DNA of 64,000 nt from Candidatus Nomurabacteria bacterium (GTDB lineage Bacteria; Patescibacteriota; Minisyncoccia; Phycocordibacterales; UBA9973): contig JAHFNH010000002.1 of assembly GCA_023267435.1 (NCBI GenBank), forward strand, positions 88,706-152,705. Direction: 5' to 3'. Shown here one piece after another: positions 4,179 through 63,953 of this stretch. The position numbers were made by a program, and so were the translations under genes. Within the stretch, counting starts at the first letter, position 1. Every line of letters begins with the position of its first letter. The notes under the pieces are model-generated. The model searched no databases. It had not been told where the DNA came from and worked only from the letters and a program-made list of their open reading frames with translations.

Positions 4179-5278
4179 TAGAGCAATTTGACAATATCGT
4201 GATAAGTAACGAGAAGCATTAGAATAATCAAAATAGCAAAACCAATCATGTTTACAGTATTAGCGACATTAGGATTGATACGTGAACCTTTAATTTTTTC
4301 AATCAAAAGAAAGAATAGACGTCCGCCGTCGAGTGCTGGAAATGGTATCAAATTTATCACTGCAAGATTTACGGAAATAAGAGCAGCAAAAGAAAGGAGG
4401 TATGCGAAGCCAAATTTATAAGCATCTCCTACGACACCCACCATGCCGACAGGTCCAGTGACTTCAGAAAAGCTACCTTTACCGTGTATACCCTGCGCTA
4501 TAAGCGTATAAAGCCCTACAACAGTACCTTTAGTAACAGACCAGTCCATCTTTAATCCCTCCCAAATAGCCAAGAAAAATGGCAATTTAGCCATTCCGAT
4601 CTGATCCATGGCGATACCAATACTAGGGTTACTACTAGTGGTATTCACAACTGGAATTATTTTAGTATTGTTTAATTCTTCTGTTTTACCGCGTAAATAA
4701 CCAACTTCAATTTCTTTACCTCCATGCGAAACAACAAAAGATTTTAATGAATCTGGATTTACATCTGAAACTACATCATTGCCACTTTTTACAGATATTA
4801 TTTTATCGCCAGATTTAAGTCCTGCCATCTCAGCTGGAGATTTTGCAAGAACAGATACTACAACTAAATGTACATTTTCCAATGCATAGTCTTTTGATTC
4901 CGTACCGACTGAAGTAGGAAGTCCAGACATAAATCCAAAAGAAAACAAAAGCCAAGCGAGTACGAAGTTCGCAAAAACTCCAGCAAAAAGAACAACTGCC
5001 TGCATGTATTTTGGTTTATTCACAAAACTTCGTGCACTATCAGCGCCAGTAGTATTTTCCTCATCTGGATTCTCTCCAAAAATTTTAACAAAACCTCCGA
5101 AAGGTATTGCGTTAAAAGTATATTCTGTCTCCCCTTTTTTAACGCCAAAAAGTTTTGGCGGAAAACCGAAACCAAATTCATCAACTCTGATGCCGAATTT
5201 CTTCGCACTGAAAAAATGTCCGAATTCATGAACCAAAACCACCACAAGTAAAATTATTATAAATATAATAGCGTTCAT
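4178..5278 (-). CDS. rseP: RIP zinc metalloprotease (site-2 protease, M50 family) with one PDZ domain
   Basis: HEFGH zinc motif at N-terminus, PDZ segment, NLIPFPALDGGRL C-terminal motif. Confidence 0.9.
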   Translation of the reverse strand: MNAIIFIIILLVVVLVHEFGHFFSAKKFGIRVDEFGFGFPPKLFGVKKGETEYTFNAIPFGGFVKIFGENPDEENTTGADSARSFVNKPKYMQAVVLFAGVFANFVLAWLLFSFGFMSGLPTSVGTESKDYALENVHLVVVSVLAKSPAEMAGLKSGDKIISVKSGNDVVSDVNPDSLKSFVVSHGGKEIEVGYLRGKTEELNNTKIIPVVNTTSSNPSIGIAMDQIGMAKLPFFLAIWEGLKMDWSVTKGTVVGLYTLIAQGIHGKGSFSEVTGPVGMVGVVGDAYKFGFAYLLSFAALISVNLAVINLIPFPALDGGRLFFLLIEKIKGSRINPNVANTVNMIGFAILIILMLLVTYHDIVKLL

Positions 5279-18342: not shown

Positions 18343-18414
18343 TGAGTGTGGATGGAATCGGACCATCGACCTCTGTCTTATCAGGACAGCGTTCTACCAC
18401 TGAACTACACACTC
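18343..18414 (-). tRNA. trnI: tRNA-Ile (anticodon GAU)
   Basis: Hand fold: acceptor GAGTGTG/CACACTC, anticodon loop CTGATAA, T-loop TCCGATT. Confidence 0.85.
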
Positions 18415-33235: not shown

Positions 33236-33310
33236 GGCCTCATCGTCTATCAGTTAGGACACAAGCTTCTCAAGCTTGGAAGCTGGGTGCGATTCCCAGT
33301 GAGGTCACCA
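33236..33310 (+). tRNA. trnE: tRNA-Glu (anticodon CUC), 3' CCA encoded
   Basis: Hand fold: acceptor GGCCTCA/TGAGGTC, anticodon loop TTCTCAA, T-arm CTGGG-TGCGATT-CCCAG, then ACCA. Confidence 0.8.
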
Positions 33311-36990: not shown

Positions 36991-37557
36991 GTGAAAATAA
37001 CATCCATGAAATTCGTAAGAGGAATCGTGAGTGACGATCCGATCTTGGGCAACAATATCCCCCAGATCGCCTTTATTGGGCGCTCCAATGTCGGTAAATC
37101 AACTCTTATCAATACTTTGACCAATAGTAAAATAGTTCGCACAAGTTCCTTTCCGGGCAGAACTCAAGAGATAAATCTTTTCCTTGTGAACAACTCGCAT
37201 TACTTTGTCGATCTTCCAGGATATGGCTTTGCTCGCGCTTCTGGTGCTGGCCGTGAAAAAATCAGTAGTTTGATAGAGTCTTATTTGTTTAATTCCCTTT
37301 ACGAACAAAAGAAAATAATATTTATTATTGATGCAAGTGTCGGGATGACAGATGGAGACAAAGCAATGCTCCGAGATCTAGAAGACAATCACAAGGATTT
37401 TATTATTGTTACCAATAAAGTAGACAGAATGAATCAATCTGAATATCACAAAAAAATAACTGAAATAAAAAATACAGTGGGTGCGCACACCATCATCCCA
37501 TTTTCATCAACAAAAAAAATAGGAGTCAAACCGCTTTTGAGCGAGATTTTTAATTAA
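36991..37557 (+). CDS. engB: Ribosome biogenesis GTPase YihA/EngB (YsxC)
   Basis: IAFIGRSNVGKSTLIN G1 motif and EngB architecture. Confidence 0.88.
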   Translation: MKITSMKFVRGIVSDDPILGNNIPQIAFIGRSNVGKSTLINTLTNSKIVRTSSFPGRTQEINLFLVNNSHYFVDLPGYGFARASGAGREKISSLIESYLFNSLYEQKKIIFIIDASVGMTDGDKAMLRDLEDNHKDFIIVTNKVDRMNQSEYHKKITEIKNTVGAHTIIPFSSTKKIGVKPLLSEIFN

Positions 37558-37562
37558 ATAAA

Positions 37563-39107
37563 CTAATTTGTTACAACTAATTGATTGGGAGAAGAAACCG
37601 CCAGGTCAAAATCTATCATATATAATCGTGGTACGCGTTTAAAATCAACATTCTCTTTTTCATCCCTAAAGAAACGAAGACAAAAATTGCGTTCATGAGA
37701 ATGGCCGTGTTTTATTTTTAACTTATTTAAAACTTTGATTATTTTATCTTTTTGTTCTCGCAATTCATCCACAAAAATTTCAGTTTTATCCGCCCAATCC
37801 GATAAATTTAAATCTAAAACACCACTATAGACATCGACCAAACCTTCCTTATTTAATTTATAAGATTGTATTGGTTCTATAGGCACATAATCAAAACTAG
37901 CTTCTTTCCATTCAGCGTAATCTTCATAAAGCTTCTGCCAAGTCATAAATGCTTCCGGTTTTATATGTCGTATTATTGTTTTATCTTTTAATTCACCACC
38001 AATCAATGTGAGACCAGAACCAGTTTTTTCAAATTCTTGTCTTGAGAAAGTTTTTTCATCAATTTTTTTATTGTCATATAAGGGTGATTTGATTAGTTCT
38101 TCACCTAACCCTTTTTCTATCAGCAAATTTATTAATTCTTTTTTATTTTCTTCCGGTACTGCCCAAAGCATTTTTACATATGCTTTTTGTATATCGACAT
38201 TGTGATTTTCAATACCCCTTTTTACTTTTTCTAATATTTTTATTTTTAAATTAACCGCATCTTCGTCAGGCACTGATCTCAGTATACCTACAGCTGCGTT
38301 TTGTATTTCAATATTTGGATTTTCCAGACACAAATTAATCAAATAACCTCTTTCTTTATATAATGCATTTTCGATCATTCTCACAGAGATCTTTTGTATT
38401 TCAATACTTGGATTTTCTAATCCCAGTTTAATCAAAGATGTTCTTTCTTCTTCGGGTACCAATCCCATTATTGATGCAGCTGCTTTTTGTATTTCAAAAT
38501 TTTGATTTTCAAGGCATTGTTTAACAAAAACAGATCTGCCTTTATATGGTAAATCTCCAATCATGCCTATATATGCCTTCTGTATTTCAACATTCGGATT
38601 TTCAAGACCCTCTTTTACTTTTTCTACAAGATCTTTTTTAAAAGAATCTTTTTCTTCATCTGACAACAACCAAAACATTCCGGTAGATATCTTTTGTATT
38701 TCAACATTTTTATTTTCAACCCCCAGCTTGATTAGAGATGCCTTATCTTCTTCTGGTGCAAATTCAATCATTTTTACGGAAGTCTTTTGTATATCAATAT
38801 TTGAGTTTTCAAGACCGAGCTTGATTAAAGATGTTCTTTCTTTTTCTGGTGCAGATGTAACCATTTCTGCAAATTCCCTTTGCACTTCAGTTATATGATT
38901 TAAATTTTGCTTCGGGGAAAATTTTTTTTCTTTTAAAGGCGGAGCATTTTCTATTTGTTCTCTAATGAGATTATCTTGATTTTTATCTTTTATATATCTT
39001 TTAAAACTATGTTCTGTTATTGAGTTTTGACCAGAAATCTCATACATTTTCAAGTATTCTGGCGTTATAGATTCTAGTTTTTTGATCTCTAAATTTGATT
39101 TTTCCAT
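37563..39107 (-). CDS. HEAT-like repeat protein with C-terminal atypical protein-kinase-like domain
   Basis: Seven or more ~33-aa repeats (…SLIKLGLENPNxEIQKxSVxMI…); the C-terminal 180 aa carry HGHSHERNF and YMIDFDLAV, reminiscent of RIO/APH catalytic and DFG-like loops. Confidence 0.55.
   Translation of the reverse strand: MEKSNLEIKKLESITPEYLKMYEISGQNSITEHSFKRYIKDKNQDNLIREQIENAPPLKEKKFSPKQNLNHITEVQREFAEMVTSAPEKERTSLIKLGLENSNIDIQKTSVKMIEFAPEEDKASLIKLGVENKNVEIQKISTGMFWLLSDEEKDSFKKDLVEKVKEGLENPNVEIQKAYIGMIGDLPYKGRSVFVKQCLENQNFEIQKAAASIMGLVPEEERTSLIKLGLENPSIEIQKISVRMIENALYKERGYLINLCLENPNIEIQNAAVGILRSVPDEDAVNLKIKILEKVKRGIENHNVDIQKAYVKMLWAVPEENKKELINLLIEKGLGEELIKSPLYDNKKIDEKTFSRQEFEKTGSGLTLIGGELKDKTIIRHIKPEAFMTWQKLYEDYAEWKEASFDYVPIEPIQSYKLNKEGLVDVYSGVLDLNLSDWADKTEIFVDELREQKDKIIKVLNKLKIKHGHSHERNFCLRFFRDEKENVDFKRVPRLYMIDFDLAVSSPNQLVVTN
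38190..38870. repeat. Tandem ~99-nt coding repeats inside the HEAT-repeat gene
   Basis: Recurring …tcttttgtat(a/t)tcaa(t/c)a…ttttcaa…gat(g/c)… units are visible at the nucleotide level. Confidence 0.7.
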
Positions 39108-39116
39108 TAAAAATTA

Positions 39117-39851
39117 TTAAGAGACAAATAATACTGCGCGGATTTCGTTTACTTTTTTCATAAATTCCATTTCATGATCCCTGCGCGGATGAGCTATGGA
39201 TATAGGTATTTCTTTCAATATTTTTCCGCCAGCGACTACTATCACCCTATCTGCCAATGAGACAGCTTCTTCTACCTGGTGAGTCACCATAAGAACAGTG
39301 ATATTCATTTCTTTACATATTTGAATCAGATCATCATGAAGTTCGGCTGATGTCTTTTCATCAAGAGAAGAAAACGGTTCATCTAAAAGAAGTAATTCTG
39401 GTTTTACAGCTAATGCGCGCGCAATACCCACACGCTGACGCTGTCCGCCTGATAAATTTCTAGGATACTTATCAGCAAAATCTTTCAACTTCATCATTGT
39501 TAAATATTTATCAACTTCTTCTTTTATTCTTTCACCTGAAAGTCCTGACGCTTCCAGTGCAATAGCAATATTGTCAGACACTGTCCTCCATGGCAAAAGC
39601 GCTCCATTTTGAAAAACCATAGAAAAATTGCAATCACACGAAACAGAACCAGCTGATTTATTTTCAATACCAGCAGCTATTTTAAGTATTGTTGATTTGC
39701 TGGAACCAGAAGGTCCGACGATGCAGACAAATTCATTTTTAGAAATTGAAAATGTGACATCACAAAGCTGAGCGACAGAATCATTGTCATAAGTTTTGAA
39801 AATCTTTTTGAATTCCAGTATTTTTTTATTCGAATCTAAATTTTTGTGCAT
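39117..39851 (-). CDS. ABC transporter ATP-binding protein (NitT/TauT-type)
   Basis: Walker A GPSGSSKST, signature LSGGQRQR, Walker B LLLLDEP. Confidence 0.88.
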   Translation of the reverse strand: MHKNLDSNKKILEFKKIFKTYDNDSVAQLCDVTFSISKNEFVCIVGPSGSSKSTILKIAAGIENKSAGSVSCDCNFSMVFQNGALLPWRTVSDNIAIALEASGLSGERIKEEVDKYLTMMKLKDFADKYPRNLSGGQRQRVGIARALAVKPELLLLDEPFSSLDEKTSAELHDDLIQICKEMNITVLMVTHQVEEAVSLADRVIVVAGGKILKEIPISIAHPRRDHEMEFMKKVNEIRAVLFVS

Positions 39852-40650
39852 AATTAAGCAAATTTTGCCATATAAAAATATTAATAATAGCTATAAAAAT
39901 AATCATAACGGTAACAGCAGCAAGAAATATATATGTATTGCCGTCAGTGATTGCTTTTACAAGTTCACTACCTATACCCGGAAGATCTCTGACTGTCGAA
40001 CCGACTGGTAAATAAGTATGCAGAACTTCAGCCACAATGGCTATGTTCCAACTTTGAGACCAAGCTAAAATAGATGCAGTCACGAGCTGTGGCGTAATGG
40101 CAGGAATAATAATGTGCCGTATATATTGATATTTTGAAAAATTAAAAACTTTTGACATAGATAATATTTCTCTCGGAATAATTTTTAAACCTCCAATGAG
40201 AGAGAACGTCATCATCCAAAGCATCGTAAAGAAAAATACGACAATAGCTGCGAGATTAAATAAACCAAATTGCACAAAAAGAAAAACCAAAATCGGGAAA
40301 AATGCCAAAATTGGAACAGATTGCAAAATATCTATTATCGGAAGTAAAACTTTTTCCGTGCGTGGACTTCGAACAGTAAAAATGGCTAGAGTGACTGAAA
40401 AAATAACAGCAAAAATGTAAGCAATAATAATACGTCCAAATGTCTGCACTGCTGCTGCTAAAATGCCGAGCATTGGTATTTCGCGTGCTTCCTCTTTGAA
40501 TTCATGACCGCCTCCAGTGAGAGCCACCACGACAGCGAAAAAAGCAATAAGAACAGTCGGTATTAATATCGATAAATATAAAAGCTTGCCCGTCGGCAAA
40601 GAATATAATCCCCTTATGCTTTCACCTAATTTTTTAATCTTTTGATACAT
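39826..40650 (-). CDS. ABC transporter permease (binding-protein-dependent family); no substrate-binding protein gene adjacent
   Basis: Six-TM permease pattern; overlaps the ATPase gene by 26 nt. Confidence 0.75.
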   Translation of the reverse strand: MYQKIKKLGESIRGLYSLPTGKLLYLSILIPTVLIAFFAVVVALTGGGHEFKEEAREIPMLGILAAAVQTFGRIIIAYIFAVIFSVTLAIFTVRSPRTEKVLLPIIDILQSVPILAFFPILVFLFVQFGLFNLAAIVVFFFTMLWMMTFSLIGGLKIIPREILSMSKVFNFSKYQYIRHIIIPAITPQLVTASILAWSQSWNIAIVAEVLHTYLPVGSTVRDLPGIGSELVKAITDGNTYIFLAAVTVMIIFIAIINIFIWQNLLNYAQKFRFE

Positions 40651-40678
40651 GACTTTTCCAACAAAGTAATTACACTAA

Positions 40679-42001
40679 TTATTCTTTTGATATCCACTCT
40701 GCATCCTGGCGGACTAATAGATTTTCTTTATTCTTCTGGTCTAAGAGCACTGCTTCGACAGTACGTTCCATACGCATCCCCTGAGAGCCTTTTATTAGTA
40801 CTAAATCACCTGGTTGTACAAAGACTTTAAGAAACTCTCCAGCTTCACGCGAATTTAAAAGTTCAAAAATATTTTTTGGATTCATTTCAGCTGAAAGTGC
40901 ACCTTCTTTAATAGCTTGCGCTCTGGGTCCGACAACAACAAGAACTTCAGCATTTTCTTTGGCAATTCTTCCAATATTTTTATGAGCTTCTTCTGTATGC
41001 TTGCCAAGTTCCAACATATCACCCAAGACAGCGACTTTCCTGCCTGTTGTCTCGCCCACACTGACAGGCTTCACTTCTCCTAAAGTTTTCAAAGCAGACT
41101 CGCAAGCAAAAGGAGATGAATTGTAAGTGTCATCGATAATCATAGAATTATTTATGCCTTTCAAAAGACGCATTCTACCCGGAGGAACGTCGTAATTTTT
41201 TAATGCATTAATCGCATTGATGATATTAAATTTCAAACCAAAAGAAAGTGCCAATGATGCGAGTGAAGCATAAACATGATTTCTTCCGAATACTCCCGCA
41301 ATAATAACCGGCAAACTTTTTCCTTCTTTATCTACTCTGAAAATTATTCCTTGAGGTTCTCCTGATTGTGTAGAATCATTATAAAAAATAGTATCTGCAG
41401 AACCCATCACATCAGCGCCTTCTTTGAATCCATAAGTTATGACGCGATTCTTGCTTTTAATTTTCATTTCCAATACAGCCTCATCATCAGCATTCAACAC
41501 TAGAAGACCGTCTTTTTTCAAAGTTTTAATAAGCTGACTTTTTTCATCTATTAAATGTTCGCGTGATTTGAAAAATTCAATATGCACAGGAGTCTCTCCT
41601 ATCGCTGTGATGATAACCGCATCAGTTTTTAACCAAGAAGCAGTCTGTTTCATATCACCCGGCTTGCCTATGCCGACTTCGAGCACAAGCCACTTTGGAT
41701 ATTTATGCGGAGCAATGATAAGCCACAAACCTTTTAAAATATTTTGTAACCAGACATAAGGATTATTCCAACCATTCGGACATCCTAAAATAGTAAGGGG
41801 TAAACCGATCTCGCTATTATAACTTTTTTCACTCTTGCGTACATGTGAAATTCCAGAAAGCACAGCGTATACCGCGTCTTTAGTGGAAGTCTTGCCGACT
41901 GAACCGGTAATAGCCACAACTTTCGGTTTGTATTTCCAAAGAACCAGTCGTGATTCTATTTTTAATATGTTAGCTATTATTTTTTTAAAAGTTGTTTTCA
42001 T
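40679..42001 (-). CDS. murF: UDP-N-acetylmuramoyl-tripeptide--D-alanyl-D-alanine ligase
   Basis: ITGSVGKTSTKD P-loop, Mur ligase architecture, dcw cluster context. Confidence 0.88.
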   Translation of the reverse strand: MKTTFKKIIANILKIESRLVLWKYKPKVVAITGSVGKTSTKDAVYAVLSGISHVRKSEKSYNSEIGLPLTILGCPNGWNNPYVWLQNILKGLWLIIAPHKYPKWLVLEVGIGKPGDMKQTASWLKTDAVIITAIGETPVHIEFFKSREHLIDEKSQLIKTLKKDGLLVLNADDEAVLEMKIKSKNRVITYGFKEGADVMGSADTIFYNDSTQSGEPQGIIFRVDKEGKSLPVIIAGVFGRNHVYASLASLALSFGLKFNIINAINALKNYDVPPGRMRLLKGINNSMIIDDTYNSSPFACESALKTLGEVKPVSVGETTGRKVAVLGDMLELGKHTEEAHKNIGRIAKENAEVLVVVGPRAQAIKEGALSAEMNPKNIFELLNSREAGEFLKVFVQPGDLVLIKGSQGMRMERTVEAVLLDQKNKENLLVRQDAEWISKE

Positions 42002-42061
42002 TATTTTGTTTATGGCCTAGCCATGAATTTGCTAATTCATATCGGGTATAAATTTGCTAAT

Positions 42062-43786
42062 TCACCTATCAGGTGGAATTTCATAATAATTTATCAAAAA
42101 TTTAGAGAGATCTAAAAACGGATCAGACCAAGTTTGAAACGCGTAAGGCACTCCTTTAGGATTTACTGCATAAAGAAAAACTATAAATTTCGGATCATAC
42201 GCTGGAAAATATGAGAAGAAAGAATGCGTATGCCTATCTTCATAATATCCTCCACCACCTTCTTTCGCAACTTGCGCGGTACCTGTCTTTGATGCGATAG
42301 AATAATGTTCTAGATTGGTAATTTTATTTTTCATATAAGCATCCATAACATTCACAAGCATTCGAGTTATCTCTTCGGAAGTTTTTCCAGAAATTTTTGT
42401 AGGCTTGGTAGGATACGATAAAACTTTTTCCGTACCATCGTCATACTTTATAGCTTTTACAATATGCGGAGTAACTAGATTGCCACCATTTGAAAGAGAA
42501 GCCAATGCACGAATCATTTCCATTGGAGTAAAAGAAACACCCTGTCCGAAAGAAGCATTTGCATTCTCAAGATCTCTAGGGCTTTTCAAAAAATTAGAAA
42601 CTAAACCGCTTGTTTCATTTGGTAAATCAATTCCTGTTTTTTCTTTGACGCCATAAGACAACATATAATCATGTAAATTTTGTTTGCCTAAATGCTGATA
42701 AACAAAAACCATTCCAGTATTTAATGATTGATTTAAAACTTCCTGCATTGAAATACCGTTTCCACGTCCCTTTTTATCAAAGTTATTTATTTGCTTTTTA
42801 TCTATAATTACAAAACCCCTATCATTGTATTTAGTATCAGCAGTCACTACGCCAGTATCAAGACCGGCTGCCATAACCAAAGGCTTCACAACCGATCCAA
42901 ATTCAAGAACATGTTCGATTAATGGATTCGCGAAAATTGACGCATCTGTTTCTTGAGAAAAATTATTTGGATTAAAATCCGGCTTAGCACTAAGCGCATA
43001 AATAGAACCGTCTTTAGGATTCATAATTATCCCGCCGACAGCATCGACGTTTTCTTTCTCTTTCACCTCAGATAATTTTTTTTCTAAAAATCCTTGCACT
43101 GCCGGCTCTATTGTCGTCACTACATCTCCGCCTGGTTTTGATTTTTTAAATAGTGTTTCGTTTATATTGGAAAAAACTTCTGCAAAAAAATTAACATAAG
43201 GATTGTCTACATCTCGAGAGAGTTCTGAATTGTATTGCCTTTCTATGCCATAACGCCCGCTAAATTCATTACCTTTGTATCCAACAATACCAAGTGTGTG
43301 TGAAGCAAGTGTATCCCCCGGATAAAAACGCCATTTTTCTTTGTATACGGAAACGCCAGAAATCTTTTCGGCTGAAATGGCATCAGCCTGTTCTTTTGAA
43401 AGACGATCTGCAATCTCTTCATAAGGATCATCTTTCTTAGAAGCTTTAGCAACAAATGAACCATGATCAAGGGTTATTTTTCCTGCTAATTTCTGATAAA
43501 CATTTTCTACATTAACAATTTTGTTTGGAGTGATAGCTAATTTAAATCCGGTAGTTTGCGTCGCAGCAGAAACGAGCTGTCCATCCTTGCGTTCAAAAAA
43601 AATAGTTCTGCGTTCGAAAATATCAGATGATGGCGTGGCGTACTGCCTATCTGCACGCTCTGAATAAGAATTTTTATGAACCACTTGCACCAAAAAAAGC
43701 TTTCCTATTAAAATCAAAGCAAGAACTAGTAACCCTAGAGAGACGATTCTTGTTCGAGAAAGAAAACTATAAGTCATTTTTTGCAA
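42062..43786 (-). CDS. ftsI: Peptidoglycan D,D-transpeptidase FtsI/PBP2
   Basis: N-terminal TM, SVVK (SxxK), SNG (SxN), KTGT motifs. Confidence 0.88.
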   Translation of the reverse strand: MQKMTYSFLSRTRIVSLGLLVLALILIGKLFLVQVVHKNSYSERADRQYATPSSDIFERRTIFFERKDGQLVSAATQTTGFKLAITPNKIVNVENVYQKLAGKITLDHGSFVAKASKKDDPYEEIADRLSKEQADAISAEKISGVSVYKEKWRFYPGDTLASHTLGIVGYKGNEFSGRYGIERQYNSELSRDVDNPYVNFFAEVFSNINETLFKKSKPGGDVVTTIEPAVQGFLEKKLSEVKEKENVDAVGGIIMNPKDGSIYALSAKPDFNPNNFSQETDASIFANPLIEHVLEFGSVVKPLVMAAGLDTGVVTADTKYNDRGFVIIDKKQINNFDKKGRGNGISMQEVLNQSLNTGMVFVYQHLGKQNLHDYMLSYGVKEKTGIDLPNETSGLVSNFLKSPRDLENANASFGQGVSFTPMEMIRALASLSNGGNLVTPHIVKAIKYDDGTEKVLSYPTKPTKISGKTSEEITRMLVNVMDAYMKNKITNLEHYSIASKTGTAQVAKEGGGGYYEDRHTHSFFSYFPAYDPKFIVFLYAVNPKGVPYAFQTWSDPFLDLSKFLINYYEIPPDR

Positions 43787-44117
43787 GTTTTATACTGCCA
43801 AGATATTCACGAGTTGCGTATTTTGTTTTCGTTTCTTGGAAACCCATCGATTTTGCAAGATTAAGATCAACTTTATTTGAGACAGAAAGATATTGCAACT
43901 CCAAATCTTGAACTTGATTTGAAAGAGTGTTAGCCTCAGCTTCAAGACTTTTTCGTTCTACAATATTAAAAACCATATTCGCTAAGAAGAAAACGTAGCA
44001 AGCTGCAAGTGCAACTAAAAACCAAAGCACAATATTTAATACCTGCCTTTCTAGGTTATTGTTTGCGATGTTTATGCTCATCGTATGCATCTTTGGTTTT
44101 ATGGACATTGTTCTCAT
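43767..44117 (-). CDS. ftsL: Cell division protein FtsL-like (single TM + coiled coil)
   Basis: Small bitopic protein between rsmH and ftsI. Confidence 0.6.
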   Translation of the reverse strand: MRTMSIKPKMHTMSINIANNNLERQVLNIVLWFLVALAACYVFFLANMVFNIVERKSLEAEANTLSNQVQDLELQYLSVSNKVDLNLAKSMGFQETKTKYATREYLGSIKLAKNDL

Positions 44118-44122
44118 AATTT

Positions 44123-45037
44123 TTATAATTTTTCTAAAATTCTTAATTTTGCACTTCTTGCTCTTGGATTATTTTTAATTTCTGCATCTCCAGAGACAAT
44201 CGGCTTTTTATTTATTAATTTCGCTTCATCATTCTTTTCTTTCTCTTTAAAAAACTTTTTAACAATTCTATCTTCTAAACTATGGAATGAAATGACTGAC
44301 ATCCTGCCTTCTTTTTTTAAAACACTGAAACCTTTCTCTAAACCTTTCTCTAACGCACCTAATTCATCATTCACTGCTATCCGTATTGCCTGAAAACTCC
44401 TCGTAGCAAAATGTAATCTTCCCTTTCGATATGCAGCTGGAACAGAATCACTGATAATCTTTACTAATTCAAAGGTCGTCTCAATCTTTTTAATTTTTCT
44501 AGCTTCGCATATTGCTTTAGCAATTCTTCTAGAAAATCTCTCTTCGCCGTAACCGTATATAACATTTGCGAGATTCTCTTCGCTCCAAGTATTTACCACA
44601 TCCATGGCGGTTAAATCTTCTGGAAGCGGATTTTCTTTCATCGTCATGAGCAATGGCTCGTTTTTCATGAAAGAAAATCCTCGTCCGGAATTATCTAACT
44701 GGTCTGAACTCAATCCTATATCTAATATGATTCCATCAACTTCTTTTATCTCTTCAGTCTCTAAGGCTTTATCTAATTCTCTGAAATTAACATTGTGAAA
44801 AGAAACTTTGCAGTCCACATTTTCAAACTTACTCTTTGCTTTTTCCCAAGCACTCTTGTCTTGATCGATGGCAATGATTTTCACTCCAGGAAATTTTTTA
44901 CAAACTTCCGCACTGTGTCCTCCGCCACCAAATGTGCCATCTAGCACAATCGACTTTGAATTCAAATTCAAACCCTCTATTGTTTCATTTAAAAGAACTG
45001 TCTTGTGAACGCTCTCCATCTTATAAAACTCCCGCAC
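44123..45037 (-). CDS. rsmH: 16S rRNA (cytosine1402-N4)-methyltransferase RsmH (MraW)
   Basis: DGTFGGGGHS SAM motif. Confidence 0.9.
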   Translation of the reverse strand: MREFYKMESVHKTVLLNETIEGLNLNSKSIVLDGTFGGGGHSAEVCKKFPGVKIIAIDQDKSAWEKAKSKFENVDCKVSFHNVNFRELDKALETEEIKEVDGIILDIGLSSDQLDNSGRGFSFMKNEPLLMTMKENPLPEDLTAMDVVNTWSEENLANVIYGYGEERFSRRIAKAICEARKIKKIETTFELVKIISDSVPAAYRKGRLHFATRSFQAIRIAVNDELGALEKGLEKGFSVLKKEGRMSVISFHSLEDRIVKKFFKEKEKNDEAKLINKKPIVSGDAEIKNNPRARSAKLRILEKL

Positions 45038-45455
45038 TGCTTAACTTTTCTGCTAATTGATCCGCTTGTTTTTCAACAACCTGTCGATAATCTGACCATG
45101 CTTTTTCATTCCACACTTCCACTCGATTCTTTACTCCGATCAATGCCGCCTTGCCGTCTAATCCAACTCTGGCCTTTAAAAAATCTGGAATAAGTATTCT
45201 ACCGATTGAATCTACATCTATCTCTGTCGCTCCTCCGAACATGTAACGATTCAAACCTCTGCTGTCTGACTGCAAGAAAGATGGCGTAGAAAGCTGTTCT
45301 GAAATTTTTATCCATTCCTTGCTGGTAAAAATAAATAAACAATTATCGAAACCGGGAGTGATGACTATTTTCTTACCCATTTCTTTGCGAAATTTAGAAG
45401 GTAATGAAATTCTATTTTTATCATCTATTGTATGTATATATTCGCCGATTAACAT
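45021..45455 (-). CDS. mraZ: Transcriptional regulator MraZ
   Basis: Two DxxxR MraZ repeats (DDKNRISLP …). Confidence 0.88.
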   Translation of the reverse strand: MLIGEYIHTIDDKNRISLPSKFRKEMGKKIVITPGFDNCLFIFTSKEWIKISEQLSTPSFLQSDSRGLNRYMFGGATEIDVDSIGRILIPDFLKARVGLDGKAALIGVKNRVEVWNEKAWSDYRQVVEKQADQLAEKLSSAGVL

Positions 45456-53632: not shown

Positions 53633-53719
53633 CGGAAGCGGTGAGATTTGAACTCACGATGAGGTTTCCCCCATGCTGGTTTTCGAAACCAGTGCCTTCA
53701 ACCACTCAGCCACGCTTCC
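53633..53719 (-). tRNA. trnS: tRNA-Ser (anticodon CGA), long variable arm
   Basis: Hand fold: acceptor GGAAGCG/CGCTTCC, anticodon loop TTCGAAA, long variable arm, T-arm GTGAG-TTCAAAT-CTCAC. Confidence 0.85.
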
Positions 53720-53765
53720 GTTAAAAGCTTTTTACAACAACATATATTATGTTAGCTGTCAACTG

Positions 53766-53837
53766 TGACCCTACAGAGAATCGAACTCTGATTACCGCCT
53801 TGAAAAGGCGATGTCCTAACCGTTAGACGATAGGGCC
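53766..53837 (-). tRNA. trnE: tRNA-Glu (anticodon UUC)
   Basis: Hand fold: acceptor GGCCCTA/TAGGGTC, anticodon loop TTTTCAA, T-arm CAGAG-TTCGATT-CTCTG. Confidence 0.85.
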
Positions 53838-56920: not shown

Positions 56921-56993
56921 GCGCGGTTAGCTCAGTTGGTAGAGCGACCCCTTGACGTGGGGTAGGTCACAGGTTCGAATCCTGTATCGCGCA
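56921..56993 (+). tRNA. trnV: tRNA-Val (anticodon GAC)
   Basis: Hand fold: acceptor GCGCGGT/ATCGCGC, anticodon loop TTGACGT, T-arm ACAGG-TTCGAAT-CCTGT. Confidence 0.85.
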
Positions 56994-63304: not shown

Positions 63305-63376
63305 GTCTTCGTAGTTAAATGGATATAACGACTCCGTCCTAAGGAGTAGTTGCAGGTTCGATTCCTGCCGAGGACA
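63305..63376 (+). tRNA. trnR: tRNA-Arg (anticodon CCU)
   Basis: Hand fold: acceptor GTCTTCG/CGAGGAC, anticodon loop GTCCTAA, T-arm GCAGG-TTCGATT-CCTGC. Confidence 0.8.
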
Positions 63377-63473
63377 CAAGAGAAATAAACTGCTTTATTT
63401 CGAGCAGAAATCGAAAAGCTTTTCGTTCTCTGATGAAATCAGAGCGAAAAGGTATACTGTTCCTGTAAGGAAA

Positions 63474-63493
63474 GATTCCTGCCGAGGACACAA
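63474..63493 (+). repeat. 20-bp exact direct repeat of the tRNA-Arg 3' end (gattcctgccgaggacacaa), ~95 bp downstream of the tRNA
   Basis: Identical to 63359..63378. Confidence 0.8.
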
Positions 63494-63536
63494 ATTTAAA
63501 ATTGGCTTTTTATAAGTCTTATGCTAAAATACCATT

Positions 63537-63797
63537 ATGGATCCTGAATCAAAGCAATTACTTGAAAATACATACGCATTATCCGAGGAGAATAATAAAA
63601 TGCTTCACAGCATGAGACGTGCGCAAAAAATCGCATCTTTTATGCGTGTAATGTATTGGATAGTTATTATTGCCATCACTTTTGGATCTTATTATTTCTT
63701 GCAACCATATGTGACGCAATTGCAGAAATTTATGCAGGATTCCGGTGCTAGTATTGATCAATTAAAAAATATAGGTAATTATTTACCTAAAAAATAA
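63537..63797 (+). CDS. Small membrane protein (86 aa)
   Basis: One TM helix; ORF only. Confidence 0.45.
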   Translation: MDPESKQLLENTYALSEENNKMLHSMRRAQKIASFMRVMYWIVIIAITFGSYYFLQPYVTQLQKFMQDSGASIDQLKNIGNYLPKK

Positions 63798-63880
63798 ACA
63801 CGCAAGCCGAGATGACTGTTTTGGTTGATAACGCCAAATAAAGAAAATAAGTTAAAAAGTTTTGAAAATAAAATAAACAT

Positions 63881-63953
63881 GCCGAGATAGCTCAGTTGGT
63901 AGAGCGCTCCCCTGAAGAGGGATAGGTCCCCAGTTCGACCCTGGGTCTCGGCA
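63881..63953 (+). tRNA. trnF: tRNA-Phe (anticodon GAA)
   Basis: Hand fold: GCCGAGATAGCTCAGTTGGTAGAGC…, anticodon loop CTGAAGA, T-arm CCCAG-TTCGACC-CTGGG. Confidence 0.88.

Follow-up and report, generated by a model that had tools for sequence, protein, structure and literature searches.

The window, i.e. the whole stretch of 64,000 nt that was analysed, comes from a tiny, uncultured bacterium of the Patescibacteria (CPR) and carries on its minus strand a gene for a protein of 514 aa, in which an N-terminal motif is followed by seven HEAT-like repeats, a linker and a C-terminal kinase-like (PKL) domain of ~155 aa (Table 1). An identical protein, encoded on a 311-kb contig, is present in public MAG data. 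The full-length AF2 model was confident (pLDDT 91.1, pTM 0.83), and the gene product would be a soluble cytoplasmic protein with three modules: motif, solenoid and minimal PKL domain. A preliminary description of the locus had reported a repeat protein with a kinase-like C-terminus and an Asp-to-His change in the catalytic loop. This observation was confirmed with small corrections to the repeat period, and its three structural claims were each tested and each held.

The protein belongs to a previously undescribed family (HEAT-PKL family) which is almost confined to Patescibacteria. At 50% identity it splits into about 600 clusters, nearly all from this group, and the fusion, whose phylogenetic distribution had been left to be checked, is widespread there. 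All homologues are named "hypothetical", and often two to three paralogues with differing solenoids are found per genome. Some members are located on contigs titled DPANN archaea; a Pfam search of their neighbours (class I tRNA synthetase, Cpn60/TCP1, nucleotidyltransferase, APH-like fragment) revealed nothing diagnostic. A literature search found no description of the family, and neither HEAT fusions nor Patescibacteria appear in a 2025 review of bacterial pseudokinases (PMC12599244) or in a 2026 preprint on PKL discovery.

Table 1 Features of the HEAT-PKL gene (positions in the window)
Feature	Residues (aa)	Position	Strand	Basis or remark
Whole gene	514 aa	37563..39107	-	ATG-started ORF
Conserved N-terminal motif, PEYLKMYEISGQNSITEHSFKRYIKDKNQDNLI	16-48	38964..39062	-	family alignment and motif HMM
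Seven HEAT-like (PBS-HEAT / alphaRep-type) repeats	87-331	38115..38849	-	period 31 aa, two 38-aa units
Linker, KGLGEELIKSPLYDNKKIDEKT	332-353	38049..38114	-	L343/Y344 conserved
Minimal PKL domain (predicted)	354-506	37590..38048	-	N-lobe, αD/αE-like helices, catalytic loop, β-hairpin, IDFD
Glycine-rich-loop equivalent, KTGSG	361-365	38013..38027	-	between β1 and β2; flanked by strands 356-361 and 364-369
Arg380 in β3 (TIIRHI), place of the VAIK lysine	380	37968..37970	-	strand 377-382; placed by secondary-structure order, no superposition
Catalytic-loop equivalent, HGHSHERN	467-474	37686..37709	-	conservation, variant columns, modelled register
DFG equivalent, IDFD	498-501	37605..37616	-	invariant Asp499, Asp501

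The N-terminal motif and the solenoid

The N-terminal ~330 aa had been described as repeats. Indeed, seven units were found between aa 87 and 331, but the first ~86 aa are not repetitive and contain a conserved motif of their own. M21, Y22 and Y38 of this motif are invariant in the family alignment, and G26 and R37 are present in at least 90% of the sequences. A motif HMM matched 166 of the 175 full-length family proteins, independent of the number of repeats, and the segment was modelled as helical in the full-length AF2 run (pLDDT 88-95). The first module would be a conserved helical motif of ~35 aa at the N-terminus.

The repeats are anchored by [LIV]ENxN[VIF][ED]IQ at aa 99, 130, 168, 199, 230, 261 and 299. 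Since the spacing from anchor to anchor is 31, 38, 31, 31, 31 and 38 aa, the period is 31 aa or 93 nt (two units have 38 aa) and not ~33 aa or ~99 nt as estimated before. A repeat HMM matched each of the seven repeats with i-E-values from 8e-16 to 7e-10. The consensus, EeERasLIkqGLeNpNiEVQKaaAeMI, is specific to the HEAT-PKL family, and the best sequence match of the repeats was Pfam HEAT_2 (PF13646). Tandem repetition of the DNA, also claimed before, was seen as a single array in Tandem Repeats Finder (93 nt, 1.9 copies, 38690-38866, 80% matches), but elsewhere the units share just 52-77% DNA identity. The solenoid is acidic, with a pI of 5.25 in this protein and a median pI of 5.3 in the family. 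As second module, this acidic HEAT-like solenoid of variable length would most likely be a protein-binding platform. Its predicted 31-residue helix-turn-helix repeat resembles that of PBS-HEAT / alphaRep-type proteins such as YibA and the bilin lyases CpcE/CpcF, which, in contrast, have no kinase-like domain.

The C-terminal domain and its putative active site

AF2 predicted a PKL fold for aa ~354-506 with high confidence (pLDDT 91.4; 89-91 across all five models). The model has an N-lobe of β1-β5 with an αC-like helix, a hinge, αD- and αE-like helices, a catalytic loop and a Mg-binding loop, and the same secondary structure was reproduced in the full-length run, which was built on a different alignment. 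The linker was modelled confidently together with the domain (pLDDT 91-93 for the 30 residues at the start of the domain model). A Foldseek search against the PDB gave 314 matches at E ≤ 1e-3, and the best 50 of the 314 were all protein kinases; a second, independent structure-comparison method agreed in returning essentially kinases alone among hundreds of matches. The kinase-like fold proposed earlier is thus borne out by the model, and the domain is more unusual than had been stated: all family members lack the entire C-lobe downstream of the DFG equivalent. The chain stops 13 residues past IDFD in this protein and 4-17 residues past it across the family. Equivalents of the activation segment and of αF-αI are absent in model and family sequences, because the chains stop that early. 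To our knowledge, this would be the shortest natural PKL domain.

Conservation was counted over 264 homologous copies of the domain, and for N474, D499 and D501 over the ungapped copies (259, 257 and 257, respectively). KTGSG was counted as the glycine-rich loop that the preliminary description had proposed to look for; it is non-canonical (not GxGxxG), with K361 (258/264) and G363 (254/264) near-invariant and S364 in 247/264 copies. A VAIK-like lysine, sought likewise, was not found at its place in β3; the position is occupied by Arg in 252 of the 264 copies (95%) and by Lys in three. Glu395, at the end of the αC-like helix 384-395, is present in 240/264 copies and replaced by Asp in 16.

The catalytic-loop equivalent lies within KIKHGHSHERNFCL (aa 464-477), five residues past the αE-like helix 446-462 and directly before strand 475-478 in the AF2 model. 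From there the modelled chain runs through the strand, a hairpin and a further strand to IDFD within YMIDFDLAV (aa 496-504). By this register His469 would take the position of the catalytic Asp, His471 the +2 position and Asn474 that of the metal-binding Asn. H467 is conserved in 254/264, H469 in 248/264 (94%) and H471 in 232/264 copies, Asn474 in 259/259, Asp499 in 257/257 and Asp501 in 256/257. The gap of ~25 residues noted before between catalytic loop and YMIDFDLAV is exact for Asn474 to Asp499. Distant family members have a spacing of 16, which is near the 13 residues of PKA, and therefore the 25 residues found here reflect a hairpin insertion. Active-site conservation extends to members at ~35% identity with unrelated solenoids, and the conservation over 264 copies indicates that the C-terminal motifs are beyond chance.

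The canonical H-x-D-x-x-x-x-N is replaced family-wide by a motif with His at the position of the catalytic Asp. This assignment agrees with the secondary-structure register, and the members that read HRD, YRD or HGD put Asp in the exact column. Eight copies (3%) have Asp469, with all else unchanged; two have Ser and one has Gln. The Asp469 variants are scattered and their nearest relatives carry His469, which implies at least six independent His/Asp exchanges, presumably from an ancestral His. With Asp as the commonest alternative, the pattern fits the idea that either His or Asp could do the chemistry at this position.

Comparison with known kinases and kinase-HEAT proteins

At the sequence level, all matches of the family to kinase families were below significance. 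Scans of the protein with Pfam, NCBIfam and PADLOC gave no match for the C-terminal domain; neither Kdo/WaaP (PF06293) nor APH (PF01636) matched this protein, and no family of the PADLOC-DB defence-system models was found at E ≤ 1. Sub-threshold matches to PF06293 were obtained for 4 of 59 family members (best E 0.044) and, with about 12 bits, for two further, divergent members out of 10 scanned. When the family consensus was back-mutated in silico (R380K, H469D), APH was matched with E 0.048 and 13.8 bits (profile positions 142-195) and Kdo with E 0.077 and 12.9 bits (108-169). All of these weak echoes map to the region from αE to DFG. By curated gathering thresholds (PF06293, 21.3 bits; PF01636, 23.2 bits) the family is outside APH/Kdo, because 12-14 bits were reached against cut-offs of 21-23. 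Searches of PDB sequences, one with a single sequence and two with profiles, gave no significant kinase match; APH(9)-Ia was the sole kinase matched in a profile search (E 2.1). The top PDB sequence matches, a SIMPL/periplasmic protein and a His-tagged designed protein, were rejected as spurious matches on the helical αD-αE stretch. An hhalign comparison of the family profile with the kinase core of PKA gave no useful alignment (probability 0.4).

Like the APH and Kdo-WaaP enzymes, the domain has a Brenner-type loop H-G-[D]-x-x-x-x-N followed by (I/L)-I-D-F-D. Unlike them, it has His for the catalytic Asp and Arg for the β3 Lys, and the chain stops after IDFD, whereas these enzymes have a full helical substrate-binding C-lobe of their own. 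The absence of an activation segment is shared with the minimal kinases/ATPases RIO and Bud32, which act mainly as ATPase switches within larger assemblies. A sequence relationship to these is not detectable and the family does not group with them; they retain the catalytic Asp, the β3 Lys and the C-lobe helices past the DFG equivalent, and their targets are complexes of the ribosome or of tRNA, while the solenoid described here is acidic.

A small PKL enzyme with non-canonical HRD and DFG motifs is also known in the archaeal tRNA 2'-kinase ArkI (AQ578 family). In TkArkI, HGQ stands in place of HRD and DFE in place of DFG, yet the enzyme is catalytically active as an ATP-dependent kinase of RNA, and its activity requires K32, G33, K51, E65, H130, Q132 and D149; essential are a P-loop Lys and Gly, a basic residue in β3, an αC Glu, the loop His and the DFx Asp (PMC9095486). 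ArkI differs in having Gln at the Asp position, where the HEAT-PKL family has His, in lacking a solenoid and in its distribution among thermophilic archaea. It retains subdomains IX and XI along with the YKR motif, and it has a basic patch that binds tRNA (PMC9095486), whereas the chain described here ends before IX. With their HGH...DFD loops, the HEAT-PKL proteins are set apart from the AQ578 family by the description of ArkI. A function as ArkI-like RNA kinase was considered and set aside, solenoid and domain being acidic to neutral; an RNA substrate of the kind used by ArkI, Rio or Bud32 is disfavoured because the solenoid is acidic.

SCYL1/Cex1p, Vps15/PIK3R4 and the PIKKs likewise combine a (pseudo)kinase domain and a HEAT solenoid in a single chain, but their kinase domains are full-size, that of the PIKKs is of the PI3K type, and in SCYL and Vps15 the kinase comes first, i.e. 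the domain order is opposite. These eukaryotic proteins are an architectural analogy only; there is no sign that the fusions share a common origin. The HEAT-PKL family would be a prokaryotic parallel to them.

Proposed function

The strict conservation of the active site points to an atypical kinase or ATPase that binds nucleotides and is probably active, and not to a pseudokinase in decay. From the alignment we infer strong purifying selection on Asn474, Asp499, Asp501, Lys361, Arg380 and Glu395, which would serve as metal/phosphate ligands, and on the triad His467/His469/His471, so that binding of Mg-ATP or another nucleotide in the pocket has most likely been retained. The best explanation overall, in which we have moderate confidence, is a three-module protein with a minimal PKL domain that consists of N-lobe, hinge, αD/αE, catalytic loop and Mg-binding loop. 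This domain would bind a nucleotide and most likely function either as an atypical phosphotransferase or, like RIO/Bud32, as an ATPase-type switch. The role of Asp as catalytic base or phosphate handler would fall to His469, and with no substrate-binding C-lobe of the usual kind, it would be the solenoid that positions the substrate or partner. Against activity speaks that two canonical catalytic residues are altered, with Arg for the β3 Lys and His for the catalytic Asp, changes of the sort by which many true pseudokinases are defined. Further, the αF helix normally anchors the kinase spines, and a stable active conformation is uncertain because it is missing. The domain had been called possibly inactive before, which the conservation pattern neither supports nor refutes.

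A true pseudokinase, which would not transfer phosphate but end the solenoid as a rigid interaction module or a nucleotide-sensing allosteric module comparable to SCYL/Cex1p, is a serious contender, though somewhat unlikely. It would account for the two substitutions in 94 and 95% of the copies, for the loss of the entire substrate-binding C-lobe and for the fusion to a scaffold-type solenoid, and several paralogues per genome with differing solenoids are what adaptor families would show. However, Asn474, Asp499, Asp501 and Lys361 are invariant family-wide, which is unusual once catalysis is abandoned, Asp recurs independently at position 469, and ArkI is a PKL enzyme that is active without the Asp (PMC9095486). 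It is very improbable that the resemblance to kinases arose from a chance match of motifs or as an artefact of modelling and that the domain has an unrelated fold: the structure is a prediction and the Pfam, NCBIfam, PADLOC and PDB-sequence matches all stay below significance, but five AF2 models agree at pLDDT 89-91, a run from another alignment yields the same secondary structure, two independent structure comparisons return essentially kinases alone and the rare HRD/YRD members restore the canonical motif in register.

The PKL scaffold might also have been repurposed for AMPylation- or glutamylation-type transfer, for a phospho-histidine intermediate on His469 or His471, or for a transition-metal site made of HxHxH and Asp499/Asp501. 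The strictly conserved His467-x-His469-x-His471 next to two invariant Asp would fit such chemistry, as would the absence of a docking lobe for protein substrates, and PKL folds with other than kinase chemistry are known: AMPylation and glutamylation are mentioned in PMC10870513 and PMC12409994. Nevertheless, we regard this explanation as improbable, since specific support is nil, and a covalent His intermediate is a poorer fit than ordinary acid/base catalysis to members that have Asp469 and are otherwise unchanged. Loops of the HGDxHxxN type are common in ordinary APH/UbiB-type small-molecule kinases, and His471 therefore needs no special explanation. A bolder version of an active domain, which we consider unlikely, is that half a kinase has become an enzyme of a new class. 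In such an enzyme, composed of the PKL N-lobe with the catalytic and Mg loops and devoid of a substrate-binding C-lobe, His469/His471 and Asp499/Asp501 would replace the Asp/Lys pair and drive nucleotide-dependent chemistry other than classical O-phosphorylation (e.g. a phospho-His relay, an ATPase-driven release switch or a metal-dependent transfer) on a protein delivered by an exchangeable solenoid, and the paralogues would form a regulatory toolkit throughout the CPR and possibly DPANN.

The family offers a natural test case of how much of the kinase fold nucleotide binding or catalysis needs and of whether His can stand in for the catalytic Asp. For kinase biology it would provide a natural PKL domain which ends right past the Mg-binding loop and has a family-wide His, apparently under selection, for the catalytic Asp. 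The genomes of Patescibacteria are very small, and most of their conserved "hypothetical" families lack an explanation; a family of ~600 clusters can now be assigned to a predicted fold and a testable putative active site.

The gene neighbourhood was analysed by clustering all neighbouring ORFs at ~85 loci. No conserved gene partner was found among them, and thus no neighbour that hints at a substrate. The most recurrent neighbour was a Mur ligase (7-8 of the ~85 loci), followed by FtsI and RsmH (4); a link to the cell wall was considered and dropped, these neighbours being too infrequent. At one locus (L050), the family gene is flanked by ftsI and a Mur ligase gene.

Solenoid and N-terminal motif

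The ORF at 37563-39107 (minus strand) of the window, which begins with ATG and codes for 514 aa, encodes a tripartite protein consisting of a conserved N-terminal motif, a HEAT-like solenoid and a minimal protein-kinase-like (PKL) domain that carries His at the catalytic-Asp position and has no C-lobe past the DFG equivalent. Public metagenome-assembled sequences include an identical protein, encoded on a 311-kb contig. Neither a signal peptide nor a membrane helix was found, as no stretch of the protein is hydrophobic enough (maximal Kyte-Doolittle value over 19 aa, 0.83).

Seven repeats carry the anchor [LIV]ENxN[VIF][ED]IQ at aa 99, 130, 168, 199, 230, 261 and 299, with spacings of 31, 38, 31, 31, 31 and 38 aa, and a repeat HMM matched all seven (i-E-values 8e-16 to 7e-10) and nothing else in the window. 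Therefore, the tandem repeats noticed in the preliminary description are real, but their period is 31 aa (93 nt) and not ~33 aa (99 nt). As tandem repeats in the DNA, only a single 93-nt array of 1.9 copies was detected and the remaining unit pairs are 52-77% identical. Pfam HEAT_2 was the best match of the repeats (E 1e-4, 23 bits, under the cut-off of 27.7 bits), precomputed hits to HEAT_2 or HEAT are present in many homologues, and in the full-length AlphaFold2 model (pLDDT 91.1, pTM 0.83) the helices are regularly paired over aa 74-331; thus, the repeats are HEAT-like, probably of the 31-residue PBS-HEAT type. The linker (aa 332-353) was modelled confidently and the pTM suggests that the modelled domains have a defined arrangement. 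A 111-aa ORF antisense to the repeat region (38563-38898, plus strand) probably arises mechanically from the repeats, with no sign of being a gene.

The N-terminal region had been described as repeats throughout, which holds for aa 87-331; the first 86 aa are free of repeats and contain, at aa 16-48, a conserved motif of their own in which M21, Y22 and Y38 are invariant. This motif was found in 166 of 175 full-length proteins of the family (homologues sharing the PKL domain), irrespective of repeat number. Family proteins have ~300 to 790 aa and 0 to 12 repeats by the repeat HMM.

Fold of the C-terminal domain

For 59 homologues, the last ~180 residues were aligned, and an AlphaFold2 model of the domain was built from this alignment (pLDDT 91.4, pTM 0.86; 89-91 for all five models). 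In a Foldseek search of the PDB, 314 matches had E<=1e-3, and the 50 matches listed were all protein kinases. Small and atypical kinases were well represented, with Bud32 (9.9), Rio2 (9.2), Rio1 (9.1), TkArkI (8.9), WaaP (8.5), APHs (8.4-8.5) and a 173-residue Ark1 chain (8.4). By predicted structure, the domain is a member of the PKL fold superfamily, as the preliminary description had proposed, and this assignment is solid; a non-kinase fold is very improbable.

No curated sequence-family threshold was reached by the domain: it was not recognised by Pfam, NCBIfam or PADLOC, nor in PDB sequences searched with the single sequence and two profiles. All sub-threshold echoes lay in the segment bounded by the alphaE-like helix and IDFD. 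Kdo/WaaP was echoed by 4 of the 59 members, with a best E of 0.044, and by two of ten divergent ones, and in one PDB profile search APH(9)-Ia was the sole kinase (E 2.1). The unmodified family consensus matched neither APH nor Kdo; after in silico back-mutation (R380K, H469D) both appeared (APH, E 0.048; Kdo, E 0.077). The style of its motifs places the domain nearest to APH/Kdo-type small kinases; its size and its logic place it nearest to RIO, Bud32 and ArkI. Eukaryotic SCYL, Vps15 and PIKK proteins resemble it in architecture only.

Elements and active-site residues of the C-terminal domain (elements from the AlphaFold2 models; residue counts over 264 aligned domain copies)
Feature	Position (aa)	State	Copies
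beta1	356-361
KTGSG loop	361-365
Lys361 (Gly-rich loop)	361	kept	258/264
Gly363 (Gly-rich loop)	363	kept	254/264
beta2	364-369
beta3 (TIIRHI)	377-382
beta3 Lys -> Arg380	380	changed	252/264 (Lys in 3)
alphaC-like helix	384-395
Glu395	395	kept	240/264
conserved FDYVPIEPI loop	405-413
beta4	415-418
beta5	424-429
hinge	~430-434
alphaD-like helix	435-441
alphaE-like helix	446-462
HGHSHERN	467-474
His467	467	kept	254/264
catalytic Asp -> His469	469	changed	248/264 (Asp in 8)
His471	471	kept	232/264
Asn474	474	kept	259/259
strand after HGHSHERN	475-478
hairpin	479-493
strand before IDFD	494-497
IDFD	498-501
Asp499	499	kept	257/257
Asp501	501	kept	256/257

Catalytic loop and possible function

The modelled elements run as in kinases, from alphaE through the catalytic loop, beta7 and beta8 to DFG. 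His469 is the seventh residue past the end of alphaE, as is Asp166 in PKA. The strongest evidence for the register comes from sequence comparison: the eight copies with Asp469 read SHRD, NYRD, THRD or KHGD, with the canonical triplets of kinases at the aligned positions. Models and variants together bear out the earlier reading that His occupies the catalytic-Asp position. Arg is present at position 468 in nine copies. The Asp469 variants are not one clade, their nearest relatives carrying His except for one close pair (plus a duplicate copy of one), and the most divergent members (35-45% identity) are all HGH; from this we infer that the ancestral family member had His469 and that Asp was regained several times. 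The spacing from Asn to Asp is 16 in divergent members, which have a short hairpin, versus 25 in the window protein, and the latter is thus due to an insertion. In the Y-R-D members P0049 and P0126 (locus L054), Gln takes the place of the beta3 Arg (ILQYM); this may be a compensatory pair with Arg moving from beta3 to the HRD position.

Two upstream kinase features had been named as worth looking for; the glycine-rich loop is present as KTGSG, a VAIK-like lysine is replaced by Arg380. The window protein stops 13 residues past IDFD, and family members 4-17 residues past it, so everything after the Mg-binding loop is missing, including the activation segment and alphaF-alphaI. Three features of canonical kinases, namely a beta3 Lys, a catalytic Asp and the C-lobe, are thus lacking.

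These changes, Lys to Arg, Asp to His and the truncated lobe, favour the main alternative, a true pseudokinase adaptor analogous to SCYL/Cex1p, which we consider rather unlikely. The metal and phosphate ligands do not vary even among widely diverged members, His and Asp were exchanged repeatedly at position 469, and ArkI is an active kinase with HGQ/DFE (PMC9095486). On these grounds, the predicted pocket would still bind nucleotide and metal, and the domain is probably capable of catalysis, either as an atypical phosphotransferase or as a switch of the ATPase type. ArkI activity needs the equivalents of K361, G363, R380, E395, H467, residue 469 and D499 (PMC9095486). The chances of a nucleotide-dependent active module are about even; a different chemistry on the PKL scaffold is improbable.

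The domain lacks the usual substrate-docking lobe, and the solenoid is therefore the likely holder of a substrate or partner. The median pI is 5.3 for the solenoid and 6.5 for the PKL domain, i.e. acidic and near neutral, and the acidity of the solenoid favours a partner protein rather than RNA.

Distribution and gene neighbourhood

The phylogenetic distribution of the fusion was traced by a profile search over 1.84 billion cluster representatives, which found 612 proteins with E<=1e-3, 338 of them with E<=1e-30; the domain was C-terminal in all 150 among the matches listed. Named sources were Parcubacteria/Paceibacterota, Nomura-, Kaiser-, Harrison-, Vogel- and Shapirobacteria, and the homologues were all named "hypothetical protein" or "HEAT repeat". 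GTDB species representatives contained 86 loci with a relative, adding Staskawicz-, Magasanik-, Moran-, Uhr-, Berkel- and Peri/Peregrinibacteria as well as Absconditabacterales; a few family-bearing MAGs are titled as DPANN archaea (by title only). A description of the family was not found in the searchable literature. We regard it as a PKL family that is new and unannotated, is unusually truncated and has a His under selection.

Some genomes encode two to three paralogues of differing length (loci L046, L047 and L089 in MAG KR_bin-0332; L041 and L044; L034, L051 and L054), which suggests that the solenoid diversified around a constant C-terminal domain. Distant members have the same PKL domain on other helical N-terminal regions: L079 has ~36-aa "ARLALEKAPKEAAP..." repeats (pattern ARLALEKAPKEAAPxLMxNLxxLPEGI), and L083 and L088 a coiled-coil-like region with two GLPAVKDLINE(R/H)TWP units.

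A conserved neighbourhood was not found over ~85 loci, the commonest neighbouring family, Mur ligase, occurring in 7-8. At L050 the family gene lies between ftsI and a Mur ligase gene. At L007 an RsgA-like GTPase is encoded directly upstream, the sample being too small to claim a GTPase link. At L087 (MAG titled Iainarchaeum), the Pfam APH match of a 189-aa ORF (4507-5076, minus strand) convergent with the family gene is confined to the N-lobe (E 1.4e-8, profile positions 4-121 of 239); the family gene thus has another kinase-like gene, small or partial, beside it.

In the window (G+C 30-41%), the gene is the last of a same-strand string (39117-45455, minus strand) in which Pfam identified a PBP/FtsI-type transpeptidase, a Mur ligase, an ABC permease (BPD_transp_1) and an ABC ATPase; the gap from the ATPase gene is 9 nt. 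Three further upstream ORFs on this strand are read as mraZ-, rsmH- and ftsL-like by size and position. The ABC importer pair between murF and the window gene is an unusual insert for a division/cell-wall cluster. An EngB/YsxC-like GTPase gene (36991-37557, plus strand) is convergent with the window gene, the stop codons being 5 nt apart. Rfam families besides tRNA were not found across the window; eight tRNA genes (gathering hits) are dispersed at 2587-2657, 18343-18414, 33236-33307, 53633-53837, 56921-56993 and 63305-63953.
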